Notes under the pieces: generated by a model
Told to the model about the DNA's origin: nothing
Seen by the model: the letters and a program-made list of their open reading frames with translations, nothing else
Database searches by the model: none
Made by a program: the position numbers and the translations under genes
Virus record (IMG/VR): IMGVR_UViG_3300028920_000079
Location: 1 to 58,269 of that record
Origin: a virus
Lineage: Duplodnaviria; Caudoviricetes
Strand: one strand, 5' to 3'
DNA length: 58,269 nucleotides
Shown: piece by piece, positions 3,911-55,605 of the stretch
Layout of the letters: each line of letters starts with the position of its first letter
Numbering within the stretch: position 1 is the stretch's first letter

Positions 3911-4114
3911 ATGACAATATATGAACAGGCAAAAGCGGCAGGACTAGAAATGGATCATCACGAAACGGACTTGTATTTGAAAGACTGCGAACAAGCGCGG
4001 AAACTGATTGCAGACTTTGAATTCAAGCAAAATGTTACGCGGTTCAAATCGCAAATAGACGGTTCTTTATGGTATGACATCCCGTTCTCATATGATCCGG
4101 CGTGGAAGAGATAA
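3911..4114 (+). CDS. Conserved hypothetical protein
   Basis: DHHETDLY...F.SQIDG..WYDIPF.YDP.W. Confidence 0.75.
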   Translation: MTIYEQAKAAGLEMDHHETDLYLKDCEQARKLIADFEFKQNVTRFKSQIDGSLWYDIPFSYDPAWKR

Positions 4115-4147
4115 CCGACAAATAACACAAGAAAGCGAGGCAAAACA

Positions 4148-9311: not shown

Positions 9312-9517
9312 GATCCTCTCGCCGTTGTGTTATTCAAATCCGCTTTGATGCTCTCGCAGTATAAACAGATTTGAGTACAATCTGATTCATCGAAAAGTTT
9401 CTGCATTCTGTTGGCATCCGTTCTTATCTTTTGCCCGCACAGTGTCAAGACGCTGCCGTCAGGGAATCCGGCTGATATATCGTGGTATGGTGGCTGAATG
9501 ATGTTGGTCATAGTCAT
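9308..9517 (-). CDS. Small zinc-binding protein
   Basis: H..TLCG..CLYC; GGGAGG RBS. Confidence 0.6.
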   Translation of the reverse strand: MTMTNIIQPPYHDISAGFPDGSVLTLCGQKIRTDANRMQKLFDESDCTQICLYCESIKADLNNTTARGS

Positions 9518-9735
9518 CCTCCCGCCGTCGTATCGCCCGTTTCGATCCGCGCCCACCAGCCGCCTGACGGCCATGATATTTCATTACCTGCTTCGATCAA
9601 CATCAAAATGCTTCGGAACAGTTCCACGTAGTAAGCGTGCAAAAAGCTGGGGTGACTTGTCTTGTTTTTTCGCCACAAATACCACCCTTCAGCGGTCGGC
9701 CTGTCTTTTGTCCAGTTGAGTGTCGGCATGGTCAT
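9514..9735 (-). CDS. WTKDRP-EGWY family small protein, paralog 1
   Basis: NWTKDRPTAEGWYLWR..GGWWARIE. Confidence 0.75.
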   Translation of the reverse strand: MTMPTLNWTKDRPTAEGWYLWRKNKTSHPSFLHAYYVELFRSILMLIEAGNEISWPSGGWWARIETGDTTAGG

Positions 9736-10052
9736 GATCCTTTCGGTGTTTCGATCCGCGCCCACCAGCCACCTTTTGGCCTCGGCACTTTACACTGTAT
9801 TTCAAACAGCCAGACTGGTGCGTGCGGTGTTTTTTCCACAAAGTAAACGAGCCATTTTCGGATGTCGTTCACATTTTTCGCCCGTCGCCAGAAGTACCAC
9901 CCTTCAGCGTTCGGCCTGTCTTTTGTCCAGTTGATCGGCGCGGGTGTTCGGTTCCGCATCGCCTTCAACGCGGCCTTCAACTCAGCCTTCAACGCGGCAT
10001 TTTCTGATTCCAGTTCTTCGACCAGTTCACCTATTTTCATTGTCATCATCAT
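9732..10052 (-). CDS. Coiled coil plus WTKDRP-EGWY family protein, paralog 2
   Basis: NWTKDRPNAEGWYFWR..GGWWARIE. Confidence 0.75.
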   Translation of the reverse strand: MMMTMKIGELVEELESENAALKAELKAALKAMRNRTPAPINWTKDRPNAEGWYFWRRAKNVNDIRKWLVYFVEKTPHAPVWLFEIQCKVPRPKGGWWARIETPKGS

Positions 10053-10276
10053 CCTTCCTCGCCCGGCAGCGTGGCGGTCGGTTGATATTGAGGCCATTCT
10101 TTGCTGGGCCTAATACTACTATTCAGCATACTACAATCACGCGGACTACATAAGAATCCGTCTACATGAGGACAATCATGCGCCAAATAACACACAATTA
10201 AGGGGTCTGGATATTTTCGCTTCCATTCAATTCGTCGCCTCCACATCTTATATTTTTTAATCCACTTCATCATCAT
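10049..10276 (-). CDS. Hypothetical protein
   Basis: C..AHDC.HVDGFLC; translational coupling. Confidence 0.6.
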   Translation of the reverse strand: MMMKWIKKYKMWRRRIEWKRKYPDPLIVCYLAHDCPHVDGFLCSPRDCSMLNSSIRPSKEWPQYQPTATLPGEEG

Positions 10277-10563
10277 CCTTTCTCGCCCGGTGGCGTGGCT
10301 TTCGGTTGGTCAGTTATGTTCGGCGTGCTGTTCGGTAACGGAACTCCCGTGCCAACAATCTGTGTTTGCGTGTATCCGTCATGCTGAAATGTGACGCTGA
10401 TCGTAAACCTATTGACAGCATGAGCATCTACAAGTTTGGCATTCCGCAATGGTTTGATATGTTGCAGTGCGTGTTGTCGAACAATGGCCTTGATACGCCG
10501 GGGGTGACATGTACCTTTTTTTTCTTCAGCGGTCGACCTGTCTTTTGTCCAGTTGAGTTTCAT
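10273..10563 (-). CDS. Chimeric hypothetical protein (WTKDR N-terminus)
   Basis: MKLNWTKDRSTAE followed by unrelated sequence. Confidence 0.6.
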   Translation of the reverse strand: MKLNWTKDRSTAEEKKGTCHPRRIKAIVRQHALQHIKPLRNAKLVDAHAVNRFTISVTFQHDGYTQTQIVGTGVPLPNSTPNITDQPKATPPGEKG

Positions 10564-10724
10564 CGTGGTCCTTTCACCTTTTTTACATGAGCATCTAGCA
10601 CCGACATAATACCGCGCCAGAAGTTCGCCGCAGTGTTGTTCTGGTACATCAGATGAACCATTTCAATTATTGCTTCGCCGGTTGCACGTCCGGCACGTTC
10701 GGCTCTTGATAGTTTCTTGTTCAT
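10560..10724 (-). CDS. Small hypothetical protein (54 aa, not in ORF track)
   Basis: MNKKLSRAERAGRATGEAIIEMVHLMYQNNTAANFWRGI...; GAAAGGA RBS. Confidence 0.65.
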   Translation of the reverse strand: MNKKLSRAERAGRATGEAIIEMVHLMYQNNTAANFWRGIMSVLDAHVKKVKGPR

Positions 10725-10726
10725 GA

Positions 10727-10945
10727 TCATCCTTTCCCGCCCGGCGGCGTGTTCTCAGGAAACCACTCAGCACCTTCAGAATGCACCCGCACCTTGCCGG
10801 TCTTCGTAACATAAACTTGCAGTCTGGTCTTTGGCGTTTCGATTCCGAGCACGATCCATTTCCTTTTTTTATCGCTAGTGATTCTTGTGACTTTGGCAGC
10901 ACCGTATTCAAAGCCGTATTCTGTTTCAGCGTAGTGTATCATCAT
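10727..10945 (-). CDS. Conserved phage hypothetical protein
   Basis: HYAETEYGFEYGAAKV..LQVYVTKTGKVRV. Confidence 0.7.
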   Translation of the reverse strand: MMIHYAETEYGFEYGAAKVTRITSDKKRKWIVLGIETPKTRLQVYVTKTGKVRVHSEGAEWFPENTPPGGKG

Positions 10946-11223
10946 AATCCTTTCCCGCCCGTCACCGTGGCAGTCTGTTGGTCCGTTCTGTCTACTGCAC
11001 TGTTGGGTTGCCTTCTGTTCCATGACTTGACGGCAGCCGCCTCAGTGCGCTCACCACCCATTGAGCAGAAGCAATTTGTATTGTTGCACTGCACCCAGAA
11101 CACCACCTTGGATGTTTTCATCTGAACGTCTGTTGTCCCGCAAAACGGGCAACCCAATAAGGAGTCCGAGCGTACCTCAGAAGGCCGCGTTTCTGGTTGT
11201 TCTTGAGTCTGTTGTGTAGTCAT
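10942..11223 (-). CDS. Lar-like restriction-alleviation zinc protein (cassette gene)
   Basis: CPFCG...V.C....C......A...WNRR. Confidence 0.75.
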   Translation of the reverse strand: MTTQQTQEQPETRPSEVRSDSLLGCPFCGTTDVQMKTSKVVFWVQCNNTNCFCSMGGERTEAAAVKSWNRRQPNSAVDRTDQQTATVTGGKGL

Positions 11224-11274
11224 TCGTTTTATCCTTTGCTGGCCTTCTGAGGCCGCTCAACTTGGTCGTTAGGA
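11152..11274 (+). mobile_element. Integron attC-like site (long loop)
   Basis: R'' ACCCAAT, 5 nt, L'' GTC[C]GAGC, 12-bp stem, L' GCTCAAC, 6 nt, R' GTTAGGA. Confidence 0.8.
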
Positions 11275-11447
11275 TTACAGATAATGTCGCGCAGATCAGC
11301 CATTTTGAGCATGGCCTCGCTCAATTTGCCGTTCGCGTACTGCAACTGTTTCCATAGCCTGCGGTTCTCTGCCGCCATCTCAGCAAATTTCTGCTCGCGG
11401 CAATCGCAGGCGTGGTGATGCGTTGCACATTCTTTCGTGTTTTCCAT
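11229..11447 (-). CDS. Hypothetical coiled-coil protein
   Basis: C.THHHACDCRE motif; GGGAG RBS. Confidence 0.7.
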   Translation of the reverse strand: MENTKECATHHHACDCREQKFAEMAAENRRLWKQLQYANGKLSEAMLKMADLRDIICNPNDQVERPQKASKG

Positions 11448-11597
11448 ATTGTTCTCCCGTCCTAGTGCCGGTAAGCCCCGCCTCCGCGCCGTTCTGTGTT
11501 TTGAGTTCTGCACTCAGCATCAATAAACCCGTCAGTGATATAAGTGCAGTATGGCGCTTTGGCGGGGCGGGCCACTCGGCTTTTCCCGGCGTTTTAG

Positions 11598-11768
11598 TCA
11601 GCCATCGCCATTGCCTGAGCCATCGCCTGCGCCTGAGCCATCGCCTGAGCCATCGCCATCGCCATTGCCTGAGCCATCGCCTGCGCCTGAGCCATCGCCT
11701 GAGCCAGAGCCATAGCCAGAGCCATAGCCAGCGCCAGAGCCATAGCCCGATTTTTTTACATTTTCCAT
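11598..11768 (-). CDS. Glycine-rich (G-X)n peptide, 56 aa (not in ORF track)
   Basis: MENVKKSGYGSGAGYGSGYGSGSGDGSG...GNGDG*. Confidence 0.75.
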   Translation of the reverse strand: MENVKKSGYGSGAGYGSGYGSGSGDGSGAGDGSGNGDGDGSGDGSGAGDGSGNGDG

Positions 11769-12118
11769 ATCGGCACCTTTGCAATGTTGTCTTTTGCTGC
11801 TTGAGTGATATTTAATATCTCTATTGCATCCAGTAAAGTTACGGTTTCAACCTCACACGGAAACTTACAGGCACCCGGATTTTTTACACCTTCCATTGCA
11901 AGCTGAGAAAGGGATGCTGCACCAGACCAATACCATAAACGTCTGGCCTTTTTTATCGTGACTTCTTTGCCGTCTCTTTGGGCAAGGTATCCTGCAAATA
12001 CACCTGCTGAATATGTGCGTACGATGACATAAGGCATTTCCTCCATCGGTTCGGCTTGTTGTTGTATGGAACTTGCCTTTATGTATTTCTCTCCATTAAC
12101 TGTGATTTCTTCCTCCAT
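11756..12118 (-). CDS. DUF6948-like conserved phage protein
   Basis: YVIVRTYSAGVFAG..ARRLWYW.GAASLSQLA.EG. Confidence 0.75.
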   Translation of the reverse strand: MEEEITVNGEKYIKASSIQQQAEPMEEMPYVIVRTYSAGVFAGYLAQRDGKEVTIKKARRLWYWSGAASLSQLAMEGVKNPGACKFPCEVETVTLLDAIEILNITQAAKDNIAKVPIWKM

Positions 12119-12172
12119 TATCTGTCCCTTTCGTTTGTTGACCGGGCGGCCACTCGGCTTTTTCCGGCGTTG

Positions 12173-12394
12173 TTATTCTGACAAATCTACTTCGGCAGGT
12201 TCAGGTATCGGTTCTCGTGGTTCAGGTTCAGGTTCTGGAATTTCCCTAATCTTAACTCTGAATGTACTATACCTTTCTTCTGCTATCACTTCGTATCCTC
12301 TCGGAATTGTATTCTTGAAGCGATATTGAAAATCCGCTTTGATCAATTCCAAAACATCCTCGGTTTTATATTCTACTTGCATTTCTATGTTCAT
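12173..12394 (-). CDS. Hypothetical protein with PE-rich tail
   Basis: GGGAGG RBS. Confidence 0.65.
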   Translation of the reverse strand: MNIEMQVEYKTEDVLELIKADFQYRFKNTIPRGYEVIAEERYSTFRVKIREIPEPEPEPREPIPEPAEVDLSE

Positions 12395-12430
12395 GTCATC
12401 CTCCCTTCGTTGACCGGCCTCCCGGCGTTG

Positions 12431-12766
12431 TTAATCATCCTTGTTTATCGCTGGTATATTCGTTGCTACTGTGTGGTCAAGCAAGTCTATTACATGCCCA
12501 CTGTTCATGATGTATCCGTACACTGATTTCTTTCCGTTGATGATTGAGGTAAAGGTAATCATATTGTTTAGTTTATCGGACGGAACTTCTATCTCGACAC
12601 GCGCCCGCATCTCTGCCAGCGTTATGACCTCATAGGGGTATCCATCCAATGAAACGAGTGGAATATCTTGGTGAACTACAGTCTCGTTGTTACACGATTT
12701 TGTACACACCAGACATGCAGCTACAATGTTTATCAGACAGCAGGAAACAACAGTTACATATTTCAT
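12431..12766 (-). CDS. Hypothetical protein, hydrophobic N-terminus
   Basis: AAGGGG RBS. Confidence 0.55.
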   Translation of the reverse strand: MKYVTVVSCCLINIVAACLVCTKSCNNETVVHQDIPLVSLDGYPYEVITLAEMRARVEIEVPSDKLNNMITFTSIINGKKSVYGYIMNSGHVIDLLDHTVATNIPAINKDD

Positions 12767-14108: not shown

Positions 14109-14310
14109 GCTTTGCCTGTCCTGCTTTGATCCGTTTCCGTTCACCGTACCGCTTTGCAATCATGTATTGATCATCGTCCAGTAGCTTTGCATTACTCTTA
14201 GCAGGCTTTTCCCACATCCCTCTGGACTTGTAATACCTTGGTCTTTCGTAGGTGCCGTCCCATACGGTAACGATACCGTCCTTGTCTCGACAATACCATA
14301 CAGTTTTCAT
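14071..14310 (-). CDS. Hypothetical protein
   Basis: WYCRDKDG; ATGA overlap. Confidence 0.6.
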   Translation of the reverse strand: MKTVWYCRDKDGIVTVWDGTYERPRYYKSRGMWEKPAKSNAKLLDDDQYMIAKRYGERKRIKAGQAKLIQLKTASAEVS

Positions 14311-14867
14311 GCTTCTGCCTTGTCCTTAAGCTGTGCTTGTGCTGTTAATCCTACACCTATAGCGGCCCATACATCCTTGCTTACACCGTACAGTGGTCCC
14401 GGCTTATGCTTCCAGCCTGTAGCATCGCACTCAGGGCACGGTTCATGGTCCCTGCCTACCCATGTCTTACCTTTACAACGCTGGCACTTCTTGCCGCCTA
14501 TAGCCTCTTCCTTGGTCGGGCCGTAATGGTCTATTATAGCCTGTCTAATAGTGCTATCGTTAGCCCTTGGGTTTTTGCATAGATGCAGCTTTACATCCTG
14601 ACGGTATATCTTGATCTTCTTGCCAGCTCGTGAGGCTTGCCAGAACCGGCCAGCCCAGAACACTGTCTCAAATGTAGACTTGCCGACGGGCATACCGTAA
14701 GAGGCAACCATTTCAACGGCTAGGACGGCGACAAAAGGCCATATGTTATACAACTCAGGCAGCATATCTTCGTTAGAAAGAAGTCCGAAGTCTTCTATCT
14801 TCGGCAAGCGATAATCTAGGACTGCATATGCCGACTGGTATGTACCGGGATCAATGGCTAAGATCAT
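14307..14867 (-). CDS. RuvC-like Holliday junction resolvase with zinc-finger insert
   Basis: ILAIDPG..AVEMVASYG..FETV.W.GRF..D.WAA; CQRC..CPEC insert. Confidence 0.75.
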   Translation of the reverse strand: MILAIDPGTYQSAYAVLDYRLPKIEDFGLLSNEDMLPELYNIWPFVAVLAVEMVASYGMPVGKSTFETVFWAGRFWQASRAGKKIKIYRQDVKLHLCKNPRANDSTIRQAIIDHYGPTKEEAIGGKKCQRCKGKTWVGRDHEPCPECDATGWKHKPGPLYGVSKDVWAAIGVGLTAQAQLKDKAEA

Positions 14868-15133: not shown

Positions 15134-15190
15134 CTCAAACCAGCGTCTACAGACGACGTGGATACACGCGCCTGAGACTTGTCGTTGACT
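15134..15190 (+). mobile_element. Integron attC-like site 1 of array
   Basis: CTCAAAC-5-TCT[A]CAGA-CG[A]CGTG-gata-CACG-CG-CCTGAGA-6-GTTGACT. Confidence 0.75.
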
Positions 15191-15209
15191 ATAAACTAAG
15201 GAACCATAA

Positions 15210-15488
15210 ATGAATAGAGAACCAGATTTGACGCTTAAAATACAGCAAGCGAATGTAGAACTGCGTCAATATATTTTTGCATTGGAAAAAGAAATTGCTC
15301 GCCTTCAAAAGCAGAATGCGCATCTCCAAGCGAAGGATACATCCAACCAATACAGGATCTCGCATCTTGAGCAAAGCATAGCCGACCTTCAGCGTAAAAC
15401 AAGGCTTCATGTCAACATCGGTTTGAGTTCGCAATCTACACCTCCTGATACACAATCAAGTCAACAAAAGAATCCAGCAGACGGATAA
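15210..15488 (+). CDS. Cassette-borne coiled-coil protein
   Basis: AAGGA RBS just after the core site; opposite strand to the surrounding operon. Confidence 0.7.
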   Translation: MNREPDLTLKIQQANVELRQYIFALEKEIARLQKQNAHLQAKDTSNQYRISHLEQSIADLQRKTRLHVNIGLSSQSTPPDTQSSQQKNPADG

Positions 15489-15513
15489 ACCGCCGCTGAT
15501 CCATACGTTAAAA
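15459..15513 (+). mobile_element. Integron attC-like site 2
   Basis: AGTCAAC-5-AAT[C]CAGC-AG[A]CGG-ataaa-CCG-CC-GCTGATC-5-GTTAAAA; AGTCAAC is the reverse complement of the upstream core GTTGACT. Confidence 0.85.
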
Positions 15514-15528
15514 GACCAAAGGAATATC

Positions 15529-15774
15529 ATGCAAAAACCTGTATTTTTTGTTTCTGAACGTGAATATCCTAAGCTACAAGCTGCATGCCCTGACGACTTC
15601 CCGTGGAAGTACCAAGAATTTGTTGAGCGATTTCAAAGCCTTTTGAGACATGATCCTAGCATCATCAAGATCAACGTGCGCGTAGCCGATTTTCTCGACT
15701 GGTGCAACAAGACCAAGGTCAATCCCAATAATACCTCTCGTGCTAGATATGCTGCACTTCTTTTCGCCAAATAA
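15529..15774 (+). CDS. Cassette-borne hypothetical protein
   Basis: AAAGGA RBS; Y.KL....D.FP..Y.EF..F..WC....R..YAA. Confidence 0.75.
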   Translation: MQKPVFFVSEREYPKLQAACPDDFPWKYQEFVERFQSLLRHDPSIIKINVRVADFLDWCNKTKVNPNNTSRARYAALLFAK

Positions 15775-15803
15775 TTTTAGTCTACTGTTCATACTTAATT
15801 CCT

Positions 15804-15857
15804 TTCTAATCATAAGTTGGAGCGGACGGAGTACCGCCGCTCATCTACACGTTAGGC
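15804..15857 (+). mobile_element. Integron attC-like site 3
   Basis: TTCTAAT-5-GTT[G]GAGC-GG[A]CGG-agta-CCG-CC-GCTCATC-5-GTTAGGC. Confidence 0.8.
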
Positions 15858-16094
15858 AATATGATCTCCGTTCCAATGTTCCATCACCTGAAGGCACAGT
15901 GCCCCCAAATCTATAGCCTCAGCGTAAATCCTATCTTCATTTCCACCTTCGTGTTTATGTTGCAAAATTGCCTGAGCAAGTTCCCCTGTTTCTTCTGCAA
16001 CAGCAAGCCCAAGCGTCTCAACGTTTTGCTTTCCCCATTTCTTTAGATTGTTGCTTGCTCGTTGAATCAACATATCTACGTTTTTGACATTCAT
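15852..16094 (-). CDS. MazG-like nucleotide pyrophosphohydrolase
   Basis: KWG.Q..EETGELAQA...EAIDLGA; TAA stop lies in the attC core. Confidence 0.7.
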   Translation of the reverse strand: MNVKNVDMLIQRASNNLKKWGKQNVETLGLAVAEETGELAQAILQHKHEGGNEDRIYAEAIDLGALCLQVMEHWNGDHIA

Positions 16095-16098
16095 AACC

Positions 16099-16407
16099 CT
16101 ACCCTCTAACCGCAACAGAAGTTGTGTCAATCCTGTTCAATTTATCTATTTCAGATTCAGGAACCTCATCACGATGATATGCTAAATAATGTACAGCAAG
16201 ACTGTTTGTTATAGTTCCATCAGGAAGCACTAAATCATACGTTGTACTATGCTCGCCGCATACACAAGTATGCCATCCGCGCCAGCACGTACCTTTCTGT
16301 GCTACAGCAAGCAATGCTCTCATCTTCGCTGTAAGCTCATCTTCTACTGGTTTCTTGCTAGCTGGTTGTGTGGGTCGAATATAAAGCAATAAGTTATCGT
16401 TTGGCAT
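16099..16407 (-). CDS. Hypothetical zinc-binding protein
   Basis: RGWHTC.CG..S...TNSLAVHYLA.HR.EVP. Confidence 0.75.
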   Translation of the reverse strand: MPNDNLLLYIRPTQPASKKPVEDELTAKMRALLAVAQKGTCWRGWHTCVCGEHSTTYDLVLPDGTITNSLAVHYLAYHRDEVPESEIDKLNRIDTTSVAVRG

Positions 16408-19250: not shown

Positions 19251-19661
19251 CTACTCTTCCGGCCATCTTTCCACCACACGAATACCAGTTCCTTCAACCA
19301 CAAACATATATCCGCAATCCCGTAGAGCCTCATTAACTACAGGAATTACCTTCTCGAATTCAGATTTCCACAATCGGTTTAATGCAGGAATCATTGCTTC
19401 AAGAACCAGTTTAGTCGTAGTGCTGCCAGCAGCCTGTTGTTCTTTCAGCATGGGAAGCTCATATATATGAAACTCATGTCTGTGAATTATTCCGTTCTTA
19501 TCTACGTAATCACACTGTAATAATGGAACAGCTTCAATCTTAAAACCTATAGGCATCATAGCGAAGTGTCCTCTTACAGTCATTGTTATGCCCATATAAG
19601 TAAACGTTTCACCAATACCTCGAAATGCTATTAGCTCTTCTATCTGTTTTTTTTCATTCAT
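19251..19661 (-). CDS. Hypothetical protein
   Basis: ATGA overlap with the integrase stop. Confidence 0.6.
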   Translation of the reverse strand: MNEKKQIEELIAFRGIGETFTYMGITMTVRGHFAMMPIGFKIEAVPLLQCDYVDKNGIIHRHEFHIYELPMLKEQQAAGSTTTKLVLEAMIPALNRLWKSEFEKVIPVVNEALRDCGYMFVVEGTGIRVVERWPEE

Positions 19662-20761
19662 GGCATAATCCCAAAGTATTCCTCGCCCTCTTCCCTCGTA
19701 GCCAAGTTCCGGTAATGCTTGAACAACACACTGCTACTGTTGCCCATCATGCTGGTAGTCTTACTTACGTTCCCGTACTTGGCACAATGATACGTCGAAA
19801 AACTATGTCGAGTGATATTACTAGACCACTCTAATCCGTCCACCATAGCAACCAAGCTCTTCCTGTACTGATCAAACTCACGCCTGCCAACAAGCATATC
19901 ATCCGTAATAGAAGCATCCCAAGTAGCATCCAGCCAAGCAATCAGGTTATCTTCCATCTCAATATACCTAGACTGCCTGCACTTACTCACCTCTGGGTTA
20001 ATAAGTATAATACCTCTGGAACGCTGTATTTCGCCGTAGGATAACCTCTCGGCCTCAGATGAACGAAGGCCGGCAAATAATAAGATCGCGCCTTGTAGCT
20101 GCACTCTCGGCAATCCTTGCGCCCTTCTAAGCAGCATTTCAGCATGTTCAACGCTTAATACCTCTGGCATCTTCTCTTCTATGCTTGGTGACTGCAGTCT
20201 ATCGGTAGGCGTATCCTCTATGAAGCCTCGCTTTTTCGCAAAATTGAAAAAGACTTTAAGGTAACGCTGATCATTTGACTGTGTGATGAGACTAAGCGTG
20301 TGTCTCGTAGACAGGAAATGCTCTATCATATCCGGTGTAATCTGATCAACAGGTCGGTCGCCGCATATCTTAAGGAACCGTTTAAGGCTACATTCTGCAG
20401 TATCTATGCTACGTTGCCGTCTATTCATGTTCCGCATATCCTGAAGCAGCATCTCGTATACCTTCTGGGCACTGGGAATATAGTGTCTTGCCTTGTGGTG
20501 CTGATTGTAGAAGGATACTGCATCCAGTAAAGAACCGTCACCTAACATCTCGTAGGCTTGTGCCGCTGTTGCGAGTTGTTTCAGGGAAAAGTTCATTGCC
20601 TGCTCGCCGTACTTCTGCTGTTGTGTACGCAGGTGATCGGCAAGATCCTCGGCTAATTCTTGGGTCTTGCGCCGGTAGACTCTACGGTGATTGTCGATCC
20701 AGCCACAGTCTACTACCCATGAGCCGTTCTTTTCTTCTCTTATTCTCGGCCATTCTTTCAT
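19658..20761 (-). CDS. Tyrosine recombinase / integrase
   Basis: FAGLRSSE (R), SK, TRHSF.TY, MGNS, KHY; N-terminal arm-binding-like region. Confidence 0.88.
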   Translation of the reverse strand: MKEWPRIREEKNGSWVVDCGWIDNHRRVYRRKTQELAEDLADHLRTQQQKYGEQAMNFSLKQLATAAQAYEMLGDGSLLDAVSFYNQHHKARHYIPSAQKVYEMLLQDMRNMNRRQRSIDTAECSLKRFLKICGDRPVDQITPDMIEHFLSTRHTLSLITQSNDQRYLKVFFNFAKKRGFIEDTPTDRLQSPSIEEKMPEVLSVEHAEMLLRRAQGLPRVQLQGAILLFAGLRSSEAERLSYGEIQRSRGIILINPEVSKCRQSRYIEMEDNLIAWLDATWDASITDDMLVGRREFDQYRKSLVAMVDGLEWSSNITRHSFSTYHCAKYGNVSKTTSMMGNSSSVLFKHYRNLATREEGEEYFGIMP

Positions 20762-20762
20762 C

Positions 20763-21092
20763 TTAGTATCCCGTAATTGTAATTGCACCTACTAATACGC
20801 CAATACCACCCATGATTATTACTGTTGCAAAAAGGAAACCTAAAGCTGCCATAAGCAGTGAGCCAATACGTAAAACCCAAGGACTGCTTTGCCACTCGTC
20901 CTTATGTAGCATTGATAAATATGGTATCAAACAGACAATGGTAATGCCTGTGAATAGCAGCAAGGTGCTGCAAAGGCTTCTTACAAAAAGCTCATTCCAA
21001 TCAGTACCTGCAATAAGAGCATTCGATACGACTGTATTAGTTGCCACATCTACATAAGCCTTAGTTGCCATAGGATTCGTATATGTCATCAC
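20763..21092 (-). CDS. Two-TM membrane protein
   Basis: Two hydrophobic segments; TN-rich N-terminus. Confidence 0.55.
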   Translation of the reverse strand: MMTYTNPMATKAYVDVATNTVVSNALIAGTDWNELFVRSLCSTLLLFTGITIVCLIPYLSMLHKDEWQSSPWVLRIGSLLMAALGFLFATVIIMGGIGVLVGAITITGY

Positions 21093-21119: not shown

Positions 21120-21310
21120 CAAAGAAAGGGCAAGAACCTAATGCCTGATGTGGTTTTCGCAGTAGATTGACAAAAACAAGTGCAGGCAAAAAGGCTCTTG
21201 CCCAAAGTGTGCGCTTTTTGTGTGTGTCTGTATAGGAATTCTTGTCCTCATCAATCTACTGTCGGGTAATGTATCACAGCTCTTTGAATTCTGTCCACAA
21301 CTTTTTTCAA
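21120..21310 (-). promoter_or_regulatory. Promoter plus attenuator-like leader of the integrase/recombination operon
   Basis: TGGACA..TGnTACATT; 21251-61 complementary to 21160-70; stem 21192-203/21128-39 followed by U-tract. Confidence 0.65.
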
Positions 21311-21404
21311 CTTTTTTTGCAGGCACAAAAAAGGGAAGCATAGAAGCGAGGACAACTATGCTTCCCAGCACGGAAGAGAACGCGAAAAGGCTAACGCGTT
21401 GGCT

Positions 21405-52860: not shown

Positions 52861-54653
52861 ATCTCTTCACCTTCCTCGTTTAGCCAATCCTCTTCATGGG
52901 TTGGCGGTTTGTTTTCCAACATTGTCCTTGGTTTCTGATGATCGTTATCCAAATACTGATGGCAGTCCTGATGATACCATAACGAAAGCTTCCCTTCCCA
53001 ATCATAATACCGTTGCTTCTGAACTTGAAGATATGCATCACCCTGATCTTCTGATCCGCCTGCGCCTTCTTCTTTTGGCTTATTGCGCCATACAGCAACA
53101 ACGTTATCGGCCATATCTGTTATGCCACCGGTTCCCTTAACGTCCATCTTTCCCGGCGTACTTGATTCGTTAATGCCTTTCCTGTCGTGATTGACTAAAT
53201 GCAAATGAATAGCTTTGTCTCGGCAAAAATCAGTCAGCTTATCGACAAATTCTTTTTGCCCATTGTAATCGTCTTCAGCAAAACCACACTTACTGAGTGA
53301 GTCTATGATGCCATGCTGGACGCCGTACCGGTGATATGAATAATCCATCATCTCAAGAACTAACTCAGCCTTGGCAGTTCCTTGAATGTTGACAATCCAA
53401 CACTGGTCGATAAACGCCTCAGTGATTTGATCTATATAAAGTTCGCTCGGACATTCTATCGCACCATATTGCTGATACATTCTTGCCAATAACTTCACAG
53501 CAGGTATTTCCATGCTGGCAATCGCAAGCTTACTTCCTTGCGAAATCAAGTAACTTGCAATCATCGACAAGACCATGCTTTTTCCGTGACCGCTGAAGCC
53601 ATGCCATATCGTAAGCTCGCCGGGCCGTAAACGAAACTGTGCATCTGATTTGGGCCATGGTAATGCGTCGCCCTGAGTATCTTGATCGCCTGCAAAGTAA
53701 TTCTTCAGTTCATCGCTGAATGTTTCGGCAGCACGCAACTGCGGTGGATCTACATACTTGGCCTTCTGAATAAACTCGTCTAAATCATGTCCGGCAAGCA
53801 AAGTATCGTTTGCATCCTTAACCGGCAACGAAATAATCTTGCATCGGTGGTGCCCTAAACGTTCCAACACTGGACCAATGGTTTCTTGTCCAGCCGTGTC
53901 CATGTCAAACGACAAATAAATCGTATCGAATTGCTCAAGCCGTTCCCAGTCTAATTCAATCCACTTGAGTTTATAGCCTCCGCCAGAACCCATCGGTAAC
54001 GACAACGCAGGAATGCTGTGTTGTGCATAAGCCAACGCATCAAACTCACCCTCGGTAATGACAACTTCACGAGCATCTTCCGGTATTGCCTGCCACCCAA
54101 ACAAAATTGGCGTACTGCCTTTACTGCAAGACCACCGTTCTTTTTTAGGTTTCGTCATGTTCAAATACTTGATGTGATAAACCTTGTCTTCGGCGTAATA
54201 CGGGAAATTGATCATAACGCCATTGTTTGTGATCTTAAAAGCGTCGAGTACAGCTTTAGAAATGCCACGCTTCTTGAACCACTTCTCAGCAGCAGTTCCA
54301 ACATCACCGCCTTTTGGCGGATCAATCGTTTTCGGTTCAGGTGCTTTTGGATGAACATCAAACTTGTCGCATCGAATACCTAAAAAATCTTGCGCCCAAG
54401 CTTTAGCATCATTGACGCCGCAATTTTGTACGGCCTTATACAAGCCAATCAAATCGCCTTTAATGTCAGCATCAAAATCAGACCATCTTCCAGCTTTAGG
54501 TCCCGCCAAGCGGATTTTCATAGATTGGCCGGGTTTCCCAGACACGTCACCAACAAGCCATTCAGCACCCTTTTTCTCGCCTTGTGGCAAAAGCTGACGG
54601 CATATCGTTTCGACATGAGGAATCAGCAATTTATTTAATTCAGTCGGCCTCAT
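52857..54653 (-). CDS. Primase-helicase (TOPRIM plus SF4 helicase, T7 gp4/Twinkle-like)
   Basis: ITEGEFDAL, FDMD.AG, KDAND; G.SGHGKS; IDSL; HLVNH.RK; KQR. Confidence 0.9.
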   Translation of the reverse strand: MRPTELNKLLIPHVETICRQLLPQGEKKGAEWLVGDVSGKPGQSMKIRLAGPKAGRWSDFDADIKGDLIGLYKAVQNCGVNDAKAWAQDFLGIRCDKFDVHPKAPEPKTIDPPKGGDVGTAAEKWFKKRGISKAVLDAFKITNNGVMINFPYYAEDKVYHIKYLNMTKPKKERWSCSKGSTPILFGWQAIPEDAREVVITEGEFDALAYAQHSIPALSLPMGSGGGYKLKWIELDWERLEQFDTIYLSFDMDTAGQETIGPVLERLGHHRCKIISLPVKDANDTLLAGHDLDEFIQKAKYVDPPQLRAAETFSDELKNYFAGDQDTQGDALPWPKSDAQFRLRPGELTIWHGFSGHGKSMVLSMIASYLISQGSKLAIASMEIPAVKLLARMYQQYGAIECPSELYIDQITEAFIDQCWIVNIQGTAKAELVLEMMDYSYHRYGVQHGIIDSLSKCGFAEDDYNGQKEFVDKLTDFCRDKAIHLHLVNHDRKGINESSTPGKMDVKGTGGITDMADNVVAVWRNKPKEEGAGGSEDQGDAYLQVQKQRYYDWEGKLSLWYHQDCHQYLDNDHQKPRTMLENKPPTHEEDWLNEEGEEI

Positions 54654-55417
54654 AATGCTTTTGCCAAATCTCGGTTATGTGCATCCCATTGTTCTCGCGT
54701 CATTCCGGCTGGTATGTTCAAAGGTTTACTACTAGCTTCTTTGCTTTGTCTTGCCTGCCACCCACCTATCGAACTATGCCAACACTTCATCTTGTTTTTT
54801 CCAACCATCCAATTCTTGCTTGCGTAAAACGAATGGAACTCTACAGCATCCACAGTGTATTCCATTTTTGCGATATACGCTTTTATCTCATCAACAGTTG
54901 GTGGTACAAAGACTTTACTAGATTTTGAATCTTTCTCCCTCTCAGACTCTCCCTCTTTCTTAGTATCCTTATCCTTATCCTTATCCTTATCCTTATCCTT
55001 ATCCTGTAGGCTCCTATCGGACCCTACTATAGGAGCCTTCATAGAAGGCTTTGTAGTAGCCTTTGGAATTATTTCCAAGCCTTCGCATTTGTCTATCAGG
55101 TTATGTGCTGTAAGTGCTTTAATTACTGAAACATGTACAGTGCTGTTTTCCGATAAGACACCTTTGTATTGAAATTTAACGAATTTCGTAAGCCACCACT
55201 TATCTTCGCTGAGTTTCTTAATTCTGTCGCCGAAAACAGCCATATCTTCTTCAGAAAAGGTTGTCTTCGCGATAAATGATGCTGAACTGAAACTCGTCTT
55301 CCATATCCCAGCATGGTCACATTTGCAGCATAAATACATCCATAACCATTGATGCTTCAAGTCCAATTGGCAGAACCAATCATGCTCCCAAATTTCAGTG
55401 TCTATAAATCTTTTCAT
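54650..55417 (-). CDS. Replication initiator-like protein
   Basis: KRF.DT.IW..WF..YL...CDHAG.W; (DK)n linker; F.PPT.DE..F..FY..W..G...K.W. Confidence 0.75.
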   Translation of the reverse strand: MKRFIDTEIWEHDWFCQLDLKHQWLWMYLCCKCDHAGIWKTSFSSASFIAKTTFSEEDMAVFGDRIKKLSEDKWWLTKFVKFQYKGVLSENSTVHVSVIKALTAHNLIDKCEGLEIIPKATTKPSMKAPIVGSDRSLQDKDKDKDKDKDKDTKKEGESEREKDSKSSKVFVPPTVDEIKAYIAKMEYTVDAVEFHSFYASKNWMVGKNKMKCWHSSIGGWQARQSKEASSKPLNIPAGMTREQWDAHNRDLAKAL

Positions 55418-55429
55418 CGCGGCCTCCCA

Positions 55430-55605
55430 TAAAAAAACCCGGCATAGCCCTAGAACATCGAGCGATAAGAAAGATGTCCGGTTCCGAAGAACCACTATGC
55501 CGGGTAAATTGTAGTCGTGTGAATAATTTCATTTATCGCTGCCAACTTCCTAGGTTGCCGCGTACTCTATCACCTCCCTTCCCGTATGTCAACGGTTTTT
55601 TTCAA
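55430..55605 (-). promoter_or_regulatory. sigma70 promoter plus attenuator-like leader of the replication operon
   Basis: TTGACA-17-TAGAGT; stem 55495-505/55437-47 followed by U-tract; 55533-40 complementary to loop 55461-68. Confidence 0.7.

Follow-up and report, generated by a model that had tools for sequence, protein, structure and literature searches.

The attC site of integron cassettes is laid out on its bottom strand as an R' box (5'-RYYYAAC), an unpaired spacer of 5-6 nucleotides (nt) and an R'' box (5'-GTTRRRY), with a total length of 57-141 nt. The L box between them carries an extrahelical base at position 16 (usually G), a stem of 6 base pairs (bp) and, at position 23 or 24, a T as its final extrahelical base, and closes in a variable terminal structure (VTS) (PMC5027507). 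The positions of these bulged bases are the ones contacted by integron integrases (PMC5027507), and the loops of natural class 1 attC sites range from 3 to 100 nt (PMC7439510). Phage genomes have already been published to carry attC sites and CALINs (attC sites without an integron integrase nearby) that IntI1 can recombine (PMC9892861), while the origin of integron cassettes and their expression away from the integron promoter are open questions. Here we analyzed a 58,269-base stretch of the virus IMGVR_UViG_3300028920_000079 (the window; record completeness about 80%), in which an imperfect hairpin bridges a gene for a 72-amino-acid (aa) protein and a Lar-like restriction-alleviation gene. 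We consider this Lar-junction element, with a probability of about 0.62, to be an attC-type site that uses the phage coding strand as its recombining (bottom) strand and forms a cassette-like unit with the Lar-like gene. The reading is carried by the structure of the hairpin, its match to the attC geometry, the recurrence of such sites in related viruses, and homology ends that coincide with the predicted cut points.

The core of the element is a perfect 12-bp inverted repeat (11175-11186 and 11241-11252) with 54 nt between its arms. On the - strand, which is the gene direction around the junction, the stem continues outward with GAGCGG opposite ACGCTC and then AGTT opposite GACT. Read along this strand, the site is composed of TCCTAAC/GACCA/AGTT/GAGCGG/12-bp stem/54-nt loop/12-bp stem/T/ACGCTC/G/GACT/CCTT/ATTGGGT (Table 1). 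T11174 and G11167 of the 3' arm have no partner (on the + strand, these are the extrahelical A and C). Numbered from the R'' 3' terminus, they fall on positions 23 and 16, exactly where attC sites bulge. The R' box ends in AAC as required by the consensus, with T as its first base where RYYYAAC has a purine, and both the length of 123 nt and the 54-nt loop lie within the attC ranges. The spacers measure 5 nt (GACCA, 5' arm) and 4 nt (CCTT, 3' arm), compared with 5-6 nt in the attC definition. The two genes are separated by only 5 nt and both arms are translated, ending the 72-aa protein as ..NPNDQVERPQKASKG* and continuing in the Lar-like protein as ..ETRPSEVRSDSLLGC...

The initial sequence-only reading of this DNA had described a canonical attC at 11152-11274, inverted relative to the phage genes, with translated arms and a loop holding the stop codon of the 72-aa gene (11229-11447), an AAAGGA ribosome-binding site (RBS) and the ATG of a Lar-like gene. 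The loop elements were all found at these places, the translation of both arms was confirmed in both open reading frames (ORFs), and the Lar-like identity is borne out by Pfam (Lar_restr_allev). The orientation also holds: the bottom strand is the coding (-) strand, so that Lar is inverted compared with the gene of a classical cassette. The geometry, the coordinates, the 12-bp inner stem and the extrahelical A and C proved right, but the word canonical did not, in view of the ATT in R'', the T in R', a G.A mismatch, the 4-nt spacer and a covariance-model score of 13.2 bits (see below).

For genome searches, the attC bottom-strand plan was coded as a descriptor, together with a relaxed version allowing one mismatch in AAC or GTT. 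In 50 kb of plasmid R100 the descriptor gave exactly 1 match, the aadA1 attC on the strand opposite the gene. Among 80 intI1-type bacterial loci (760 kb) it gave 56 matches (53 on the strand expected to be the bottom one, 3 on its complement), and it gave 0 matches in 27 distant phage loci (270 kb). In the window, the relaxed version matched a single site, 11274..11152, with the extrahelical bases 'GT'. The strict version misses this site because of the ATT in R''. It also misses all six sites of the viral contig L028 that were later found by the covariance model, which indicates its limited sensitivity. Two relaxed matches in other contigs, L013 422..308 and L020 10247-10379, have the extrahelical bases 'TG' and were set aside as probable false positives. 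The covariance model, named R1, was built from 29 bacterial attC bottom strands of 57-72 nt; these were taken from 43 distinct + strand descriptor sequences of integron loci, with two further 60-nt sites and 12 longer ones left out. In 8 integron loci R1 returned 21 bottom-strand matches of 26.7-75.3 bits, including untrained long-loop sites, and its best top-strand match scored 25.6 bits. R1 aligned the Lar-junction site over its full length, with the ends exactly at 11274 and 11152.

Shuffled sequences were used to estimate how often such a structure arises by chance. Perfect 12-bp inverted repeats with loops of up to 120 nt occur twice in the window; 100 shuffles had 0.36 on average. The arm-to-arm duplex reaches -39.5 kcal/mol, and the best duplexes of 30 shuffled windows range from -23.2 to -35.5 kcal/mol. 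RNA folding of 11145-11285 yielded -43.7 kcal/mol (z score -3.7), with 0 of 200 shuffles equally good; the other operon junctions examined (10880-11029, 10660-10809 and 10490-10639) folded no better than shuffles. A functionless inverted repeat, formed by chance at a mosaic junction, is to us a very improbable explanation. It would be consistent with the 23 of 100 shuffled windows that had at least one perfect 12-bp repeat, with the roughly 0.6 relaxed-descriptor matches per shuffled window, with the many mosaic breakpoints of the region and with the absence of the 5' arm in the related locus L007. It hardly accounts, however, for a duplex stronger than the best of all the shuffled windows, for the full geometry combined with an inner stem of at least 12 bp (found in only 3 relaxed-descriptor matches over 155 shuffles), or for same-plan sites at the same gene junction in one relative and at other junctions in five contigs.

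Table 1 Coordinates of the Lar-junction site, its flanking genes and the further attC-like sites of the window.
Feature	Position	Strand	Details
72-aa gene	11447..11229	-	CxxHHHxCDC motif and coiled coil; no family match; last 13 codons within 5' arm and loop
Lar-like restriction-alleviation gene, 93 aa	11223..10942	-	Pfam Lar_restr_allev PF14354, E 3.4e-10; phrog_599 'Lar-like restriction alleviation protein', E 9e-11
Whole site	11274..11152	-	123-nt imperfect hairpin bridging the 72-aa and Lar-like genes
R' box TCCTAAC	11274-11268	-	Predicted cut A11269/C11268 (G11268/T11269 on +); ends set by descriptor and model R1
5' arm, outer part	11267..11253	-	Unpaired spacer GACCA 11267-11263; AGTT 11262-11259; six-position stem GAGCGG 11258-11253; descriptor d5 = 9
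5' arm of inner stem, CCTCAGAAGGCC	11252..11241	-	Codes ..RPQKA.. of the 72-aa protein
Terminal loop (VTS), 54 nt	11240..11187	-	RBS AAAGGA 11237-11232; TAA 11231-11229 (72-aa gene); ATG 11223-11221 (Lar-like gene)
3' arm of inner stem, GGCCTTCTGAGG	11186..11175	-	Codes ..RPSE.. of the Lar-like protein
3' arm, outer part	11174..11159	-	T11174 unpaired (position 23); ACGCTC 11173-11168; G11167 unpaired (position 16); GACT 11166-11163; spacer CCTT 11162-11159
R'' box ATTGGGT	11158..11152	-	Consensus GTTRRRY; GTTGGGT in L007
Distal unit boundary ACCCAAC	11008..11002	-	L007 homology stops here
attC-like site	15513..15459	-	R1 23.4 bits, E 0.0015
attC-like site	15857..15804	-	R1 21.2 bits, E 0.0053
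attC-like site	15189..15134	-	R1 16.9 bits, E 0.063
Classical cassette ORFs	15210-15488 and 15529-15774	+	Match phrog_1244 and phrog_4753, each E 1.3e-5

Homologues of the 72-aa gene were identified in the viral contigs G001-G004, with 64-72% identity in G001-G003 (alignment A4) and 54% for locus L006 of G004, and each of the four has a different gene behind the homologue. In G001 (locus L003), a hairpin of unrelated sequence occupies the Lar-junction position. Its R' box, ACCCAAC, sits on the same codons as TCCTAAC, followed by the same plan of G at position 16, 6 of 6 stem pairs, T at position 23 and a 12-bp inner stem (R1, 19.2 bits). In its 34-nt loop, AAGGAGG is accompanied by a stop/start overlap (ATGA), and a zinc-ribbon gene begins there. 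The G001 homologue has one attC-like site on either side. At the place of the 57-nt site of G001, just upstream of the 72-aa gene, the window has its second-strongest long-loop hairpin (11475-11568, -29.9 kcal/mol, 78-nt loop), to which R1 gave no match. Same-plan hairpins are found at other junctions in G002 and G003, where the flanking genes likewise have their stop, RBS and start in the loop. In L004, the junction after the 72-aa gene forms no hairpin (z score +0.78); another L004 hairpin, 4020-4135 (L015 3246..3110), was judged doubtful as an attC, with only 9.2 bits by R1.

Applied with filters off to 60 kb of relatives, R1 gave 18 matches with E < 0.5: 4 in L020/G004, 3 in L018/G003, 5 in L015/G002, 5 in L014/G001 and 1 in L007. 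All of them lie on one strand per contig, namely the strand of the 72-aa gene in G001-G004 and the strand of Lar in L007. The clearest array is that of L028 (IMGVR_UViG_3300032254_000019), with six sites on one strand between 288 and 2853 (best 37.5 bits, E 3.5e-6), the first five spaced 200-260 nt apart; in the other 26 distant phage loci no R1 match fell below E 1. The array is of the format that we call 'attC-first', in which a unit consists of the C, the rest of the attC with a translation start, the gene and the next ..AA. The following ORF starts in the loop for three of the L028 sites, all six upstream frames stop at a TAA within R' (xxxTAA/C), and the ORFs tile the intervals exactly; Pfam and PHROGs gave a match for one of the six ORFs. 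Gene ends and starts were surveyed at 25 phage sites, the Lar-junction site and 24 in relatives. In 21 cases an open frame on the same strand, 50 codons or longer, terminates within the site or at most 3 nt ahead of it; in 13 cases the site contains the start of a same-strand ORF of 45 or more codons that has an RBS-like motif. Some array sites of the relatives have short 3-nt loops without a start codon.

The cassette-like unit with the Lar gene comprises 266 nt, from C11268 to A11003, and begins just behind the conserved part of the 72-aa gene. Homology between the window and G001 or G002 stops at 11267 or 11264, respectively, adjoining the predicted cut A11269/C11268. At the other end, homology to L007, whose Lar is 81% identical and which is the only close Lar relative with the N-terminal extension, stops at 11002, adjoining the cut A11003/C11002. 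Between the end of the unit and the R'' region there are 10 nt of complementarity in the window and 11 in L007, as would be expected if the unit had once closed into a circle; in such a circle, 6 of the 7 R'' positions would pair with the terminal ACCCAAC of the unit. The bases behind ACCCAAC in L007 (GCC..) resemble the start of another L007 site, ACCCAACGCC (130-185, 20.4 bits), and the contig ends 37 nt further on. Both boundaries proposed by the sequence-only reading agree with these homology ends. The 11-mers that it had matched at the cassette ends are a perfect 10-mer, TTGGGTTGCC at 11003-11012 and GGCAACCCAA at 11148-11157, with a mismatch at the outer base. Its idea of a phage-adapted cassette format is strengthened by the same-strand arrays, many of their sites with a start codon, that the bacterially trained R1 finds in five related contigs; it is weakened by L007, where only the 3' arm of the hairpin is conserved. 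Collectively, the earlier interpretation is partly supported, while recombination, translational coupling and the part of a host IntI stay putative.

Several observations weigh against an attC site at the Lar junction. The R'' box reads ATTGGGT, with A in place of the G of GTTRRRY; the difference from the GTT of L007 is synonymous, TTA against TTG for Leu. In the present context the R boxes pair with only 4 Watson-Crick pairs and 1 wobble of 7 positions, and a G.A mismatch leaves the six-position stem with 5 pairs. R1 scored the site at 13.2 bits, with an E value of 0.53 in the window (filters off) and 4 in 441 kb, so that by R1 alone the site is not significant, and the relaxed descriptor is not rare by itself, with 90 matches in 155 shuffled windows. 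L007 keeps the 3' arm as coding sequence (with one change, and with the canonical GTTGGGT) without the 5' arm, and its homology also stops inside the loop at about 11195 and not at R'. Breaks within the site, at 11153-11165, occur in the locus L008 and in low-depth contigs from the X2 and X3 runs, showing that exchange in this breakpoint-rich region is not confined to attC cut points. No hairpin follows the distal ACCCAAC (11002) in the window. Many short intervals of the relatives are open on both strands, for which reason the count of open frames decides little on the coding strand; firm assignments are limited to the 72-aa gene (homology), Lar (Pfam), one L028 ORF (PHROG E 6e-12) and the L028 tiling. 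Finally, an integron integrase was found neither in the window, whose tyrosine recombinase scores 31 bits against TIGR02249 (cut-off 265), nor in the five related contigs, which are incomplete. The ATT in R'', the imperfect R box and the low R1 score suggest that the Lar-junction copy is a weak or decaying site.

Three further sites were detected by R1 at 15134-15857, about 3.9 kb away on the same strand as the Lar-junction site and with higher scores (Table 1). They bound two units of 323 and 344 nt (15185-15851), each with an RBS right behind the preceding GTT and the next site after its ORF, and the - strand alternatives to these ORFs had no match. As in classical cassettes, the gene is on the top strand, upstream of its attC. 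Because the three sites bound two units of this classical form, the phage carries integron-type cassettes, and their bottom strand is the - strand, just like that of the Lar-junction site. The cassette ORFs run antisense to their neighbors, a MazG-like gene (15852-16130) and a Holliday junction resolvase-like gene (14307-14867); the stop of the MazG-like gene is a TAA within the R' box GCCTAAC. The Lar unit does not share the classical gene position, and the window does not qualify as a complete integron, which has an integron integrase gene and an attI beside its array; as in CALINs and the isolated sites known as SALINs, no integron integrase lies nearby, and the Lar-junction site stands alone. 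A different structure is present at 21389-21404, a 16-base palindrome in which an R'-like box is joined directly to an R''-like box (AGCCAACGC/GTTAGCC, - strand). R1 gives it 11.8 bits with the whole middle deleted in the alignment. The palindrome, some 600 nt away from the gene for the tyrosine recombinase and amid other hairpins (21160-21261 and 21333-21366), could be a collapsed attC or the phage attachment site.

DNA near-identical to the window is present in marine-sediment metagenome runs, whose contigs were examined over 9500-12500; no RNA run was among those listed. A single contig, from the probable source run, spans 9500-11630 without differences. The excision joint 11002/11268 is not listed among these contigs; since contigs drop rare variants, the read layout is silent on rare excision. 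One low-depth joint connects 11022 to 11136 (one contig, side 21), off the predicted cut points. At 11594-11770, a tandem repeat with units such as GCCATCGCCTGAGCC, encoding a Gly/Asp/Ser-rich protein on the - strand, collects a pile-up of many unrelated contigs from all three runs (depth >1000) and many 'goes back' joints. Megablast of 10700-11800 against phage and E. coli collections gave no match, and an exact search of viral contigs for the two hairpin arms with a 40-70 nt gap gave none. A protein search with Lar in viral contigs reached one distant locus, L002, and in genome contigs 0 of 98 candidate stretches were confirmed by Lar alignment. Downstream of the junction, 9500-10960 holds a series of small paralogous genes with the common motif NWTKDRP.AEGWY. 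The sequence GGCGGGAAAGGA recurs at their junctions, exactly at 10730 and 10948 and as variants at 10276 and 10052 (9 matches to the motif against 3.5 expected), forming the end of each gene (..PPGGKG or ..PGEKG) and the RBS for the next. These repeated junctions are a candidate substrate for homologous recombination and could be a real shuffling signal. Two other inverted repeats were observed far from this region: an 11-bp repeat with a 47-nt loop followed by a T run (55437-55505), upstream of a gene starting at about 55416, and a 10-bp repeat (54585-54666) around the ATGA stop/start overlap at 54650-54653.

If the Lar-junction element is an attC-type site, its hairpin would fold in single-stranded DNA with the layout that integron integrases recognise, and an integron integrase (not encoded here) or another recombinase would act on it. 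The attC would precede its gene, with a loop that supplies a stop codon to the gene before it and an RBS and start codon to the gene after it. Since RBS and ATG are both in the loop, the unit would bring its own translation start. In the mRNA, the same hairpin (about -40 kcal/mol) would form unless ribosomes finishing the 72-aa gene open the 5' arm. As this gene ends in the loop, its ribosomes would melt the 5' arm and free the Lar start, so that Lar translation may be coupled to translation of the 72-aa gene. Such coupling would agree with the reported block that mRNA attC hairpins pose to ribosomes when no translation passes through them (PMC8876359).

It should be considered whether the element is an mRNA structure only, that is, a long-range helix framing the Lar start that couples or limits translation, or serves as a target of a double-strand-specific RNase, with the attC likeness being coincidental. 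The hairpin is indeed on the transcribed sense strand with its strong RNA fold, G.U pairs occur in the sense strand in several helices of this site and of the relatives' sites, stop, RBS and start all lie within the loop, and a hindrance of ribosomes by mRNA attC hairpins, relieved by internal short ORFs, has been reported (PMC8876359). Such a role alone, however, leaves unexplained why AAC and ATT or GTT stand at fixed distances, why bulges occur at positions 16 and 23, why a model trained on DNA attC sites fits end to end, why same-strand arrays include 3-nt loops without a start codon, and why homology ends at AA/C. Rfam, searched over 10000-12500 with E up to 10, gave two chance-level matches and nothing else. 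An RNA role is also compatible with the attC reading. We regard the purely RNA-based explanation as unlikely.

A further question is which enzyme would act on the site. An attC-shaped recombination hairpin might be used by an enzyme other than the host integron integrase, for example the phage's own tyrosine recombinase (19658..20788, -). This protein, the only tyrosine recombinase of the window, is Xer-like (54 bits to XerD and 43 bits to XerC), and XerCD are, besides integron integrases, the tyrosine recombinases for which folded single-stranded substrates are known (PMC5027507). The integron integrase missing from the window and the five related contigs, and the R1 scores of the phage sites below those of bacterial attC sites, would fit this alternative as well. 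On the other side, no match to PF00589 was found in G001-G004, though these contigs are 30-62% complete. Moreover, the bulges occupy the positions that integron integrases contact (PMC5027507), and IntI1 recombined five of six phage attC sites tested (PMC9892861). Another enzyme in place of the integron integrase therefore seems to us quite unlikely, somewhat more so than the RNA-only structure.

Returning to the attC-type reading, the arrays of the relatives raise a broader possibility, which we put forward tentatively and at less than even odds: a marine-sediment phage lineage may keep small accessory and anti-defence genes as 'attC-first' cassettes whose bottom strand is coding. In such a lineage each attC would end the previous gene (in R' or in the loop) and start the next from a loop RBS and ATG, so that any cassette placed after any other would be translated at once by coupling. 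They would represent a phage-specific cassette form, shuffled by a host integron integrase or by an unrecognised recombinase. If the sites recombine, phages could exchange Lar and other small counter-defence genes as units that find expression at any landing place. Phages would then act as a reservoir of cassettes and possibly as the place where they originate.

Compared with the aadA1 attC of In2 in R100 (NC_002134), a 60-nt site of the form ATCTAAC-GCTTG-AGTT-AAGCCG-stem..T-CGGCTT-G-AAC-GAATT-GTTAGAC, the Lar-junction site has the same order and spacing of parts. In aadA1 a top-strand gene precedes the attC, whose loop has 3 nt, whereas in the window the gene is on the bottom strand downstream of the attC, the 54-nt loop carries a translation start, R'' begins with A and the arms are coding. 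The phage attC sites of PMC9892861 are alike in lying in phage genomes, both temperate and virulent, without an integrase nearby. Their cargo of DNA methyltransferases resembles the Lar-like protein in serving restriction escape; as far as the available text describes them, those cassettes have the usual direction or their attC sites diverge. SALINs and cassettes inserted at genomic attG sites (Loot et al., bioRxiv 10.1101/2022.09.11.507474) likewise combine an isolated attC with one gene far from an integron. The Lar unit resembles them in that one of its ends abuts non-attC sequence, but they were described in bacterial chromosomes, and the available part of that preprint contains nothing on translation starts in the loop. 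The PeSL cassettes of T4-type phages (PMC2839356, PMC4122927) are similar in that repeated stem-loops border small accessory genes and are thought to shuffle them. They differ in having conserved promoter and terminator sequences and using homologous recombination, whereas sites of the window type share structure and not sequence.

With respect to translation, the closest parallel is the short ORFs in attC sites (Jacquier et al., according to the review PMC8876359), where translation into the hairpin opens it and aids expression of the next gene. In those sites, which follow a top-strand gene, the small ORF is additional, whereas here it is the two neighboring genes whose end and start lie within the site. 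Synthetic coding attC sites (Nivina et al. 2020, PMC7439510) demonstrate that the arms can encode protein and still recombine; so far this was known from engineered sites only, and the window offers a natural, probable attC-type site that spans a gene junction and is read as protein on both arms. In the literature that we searched, within the portions available, neither a start codon in an attC loop nor a phage array with a coding bottom strand is described, and the supplementary phage-CALIN tables of PMC9892861, outside this scope, may bear on novelty. In conclusion, an attC placed ahead of a bottom-strand gene, with one gene stopping and the next one starting within its loop, is apparently a new arrangement.

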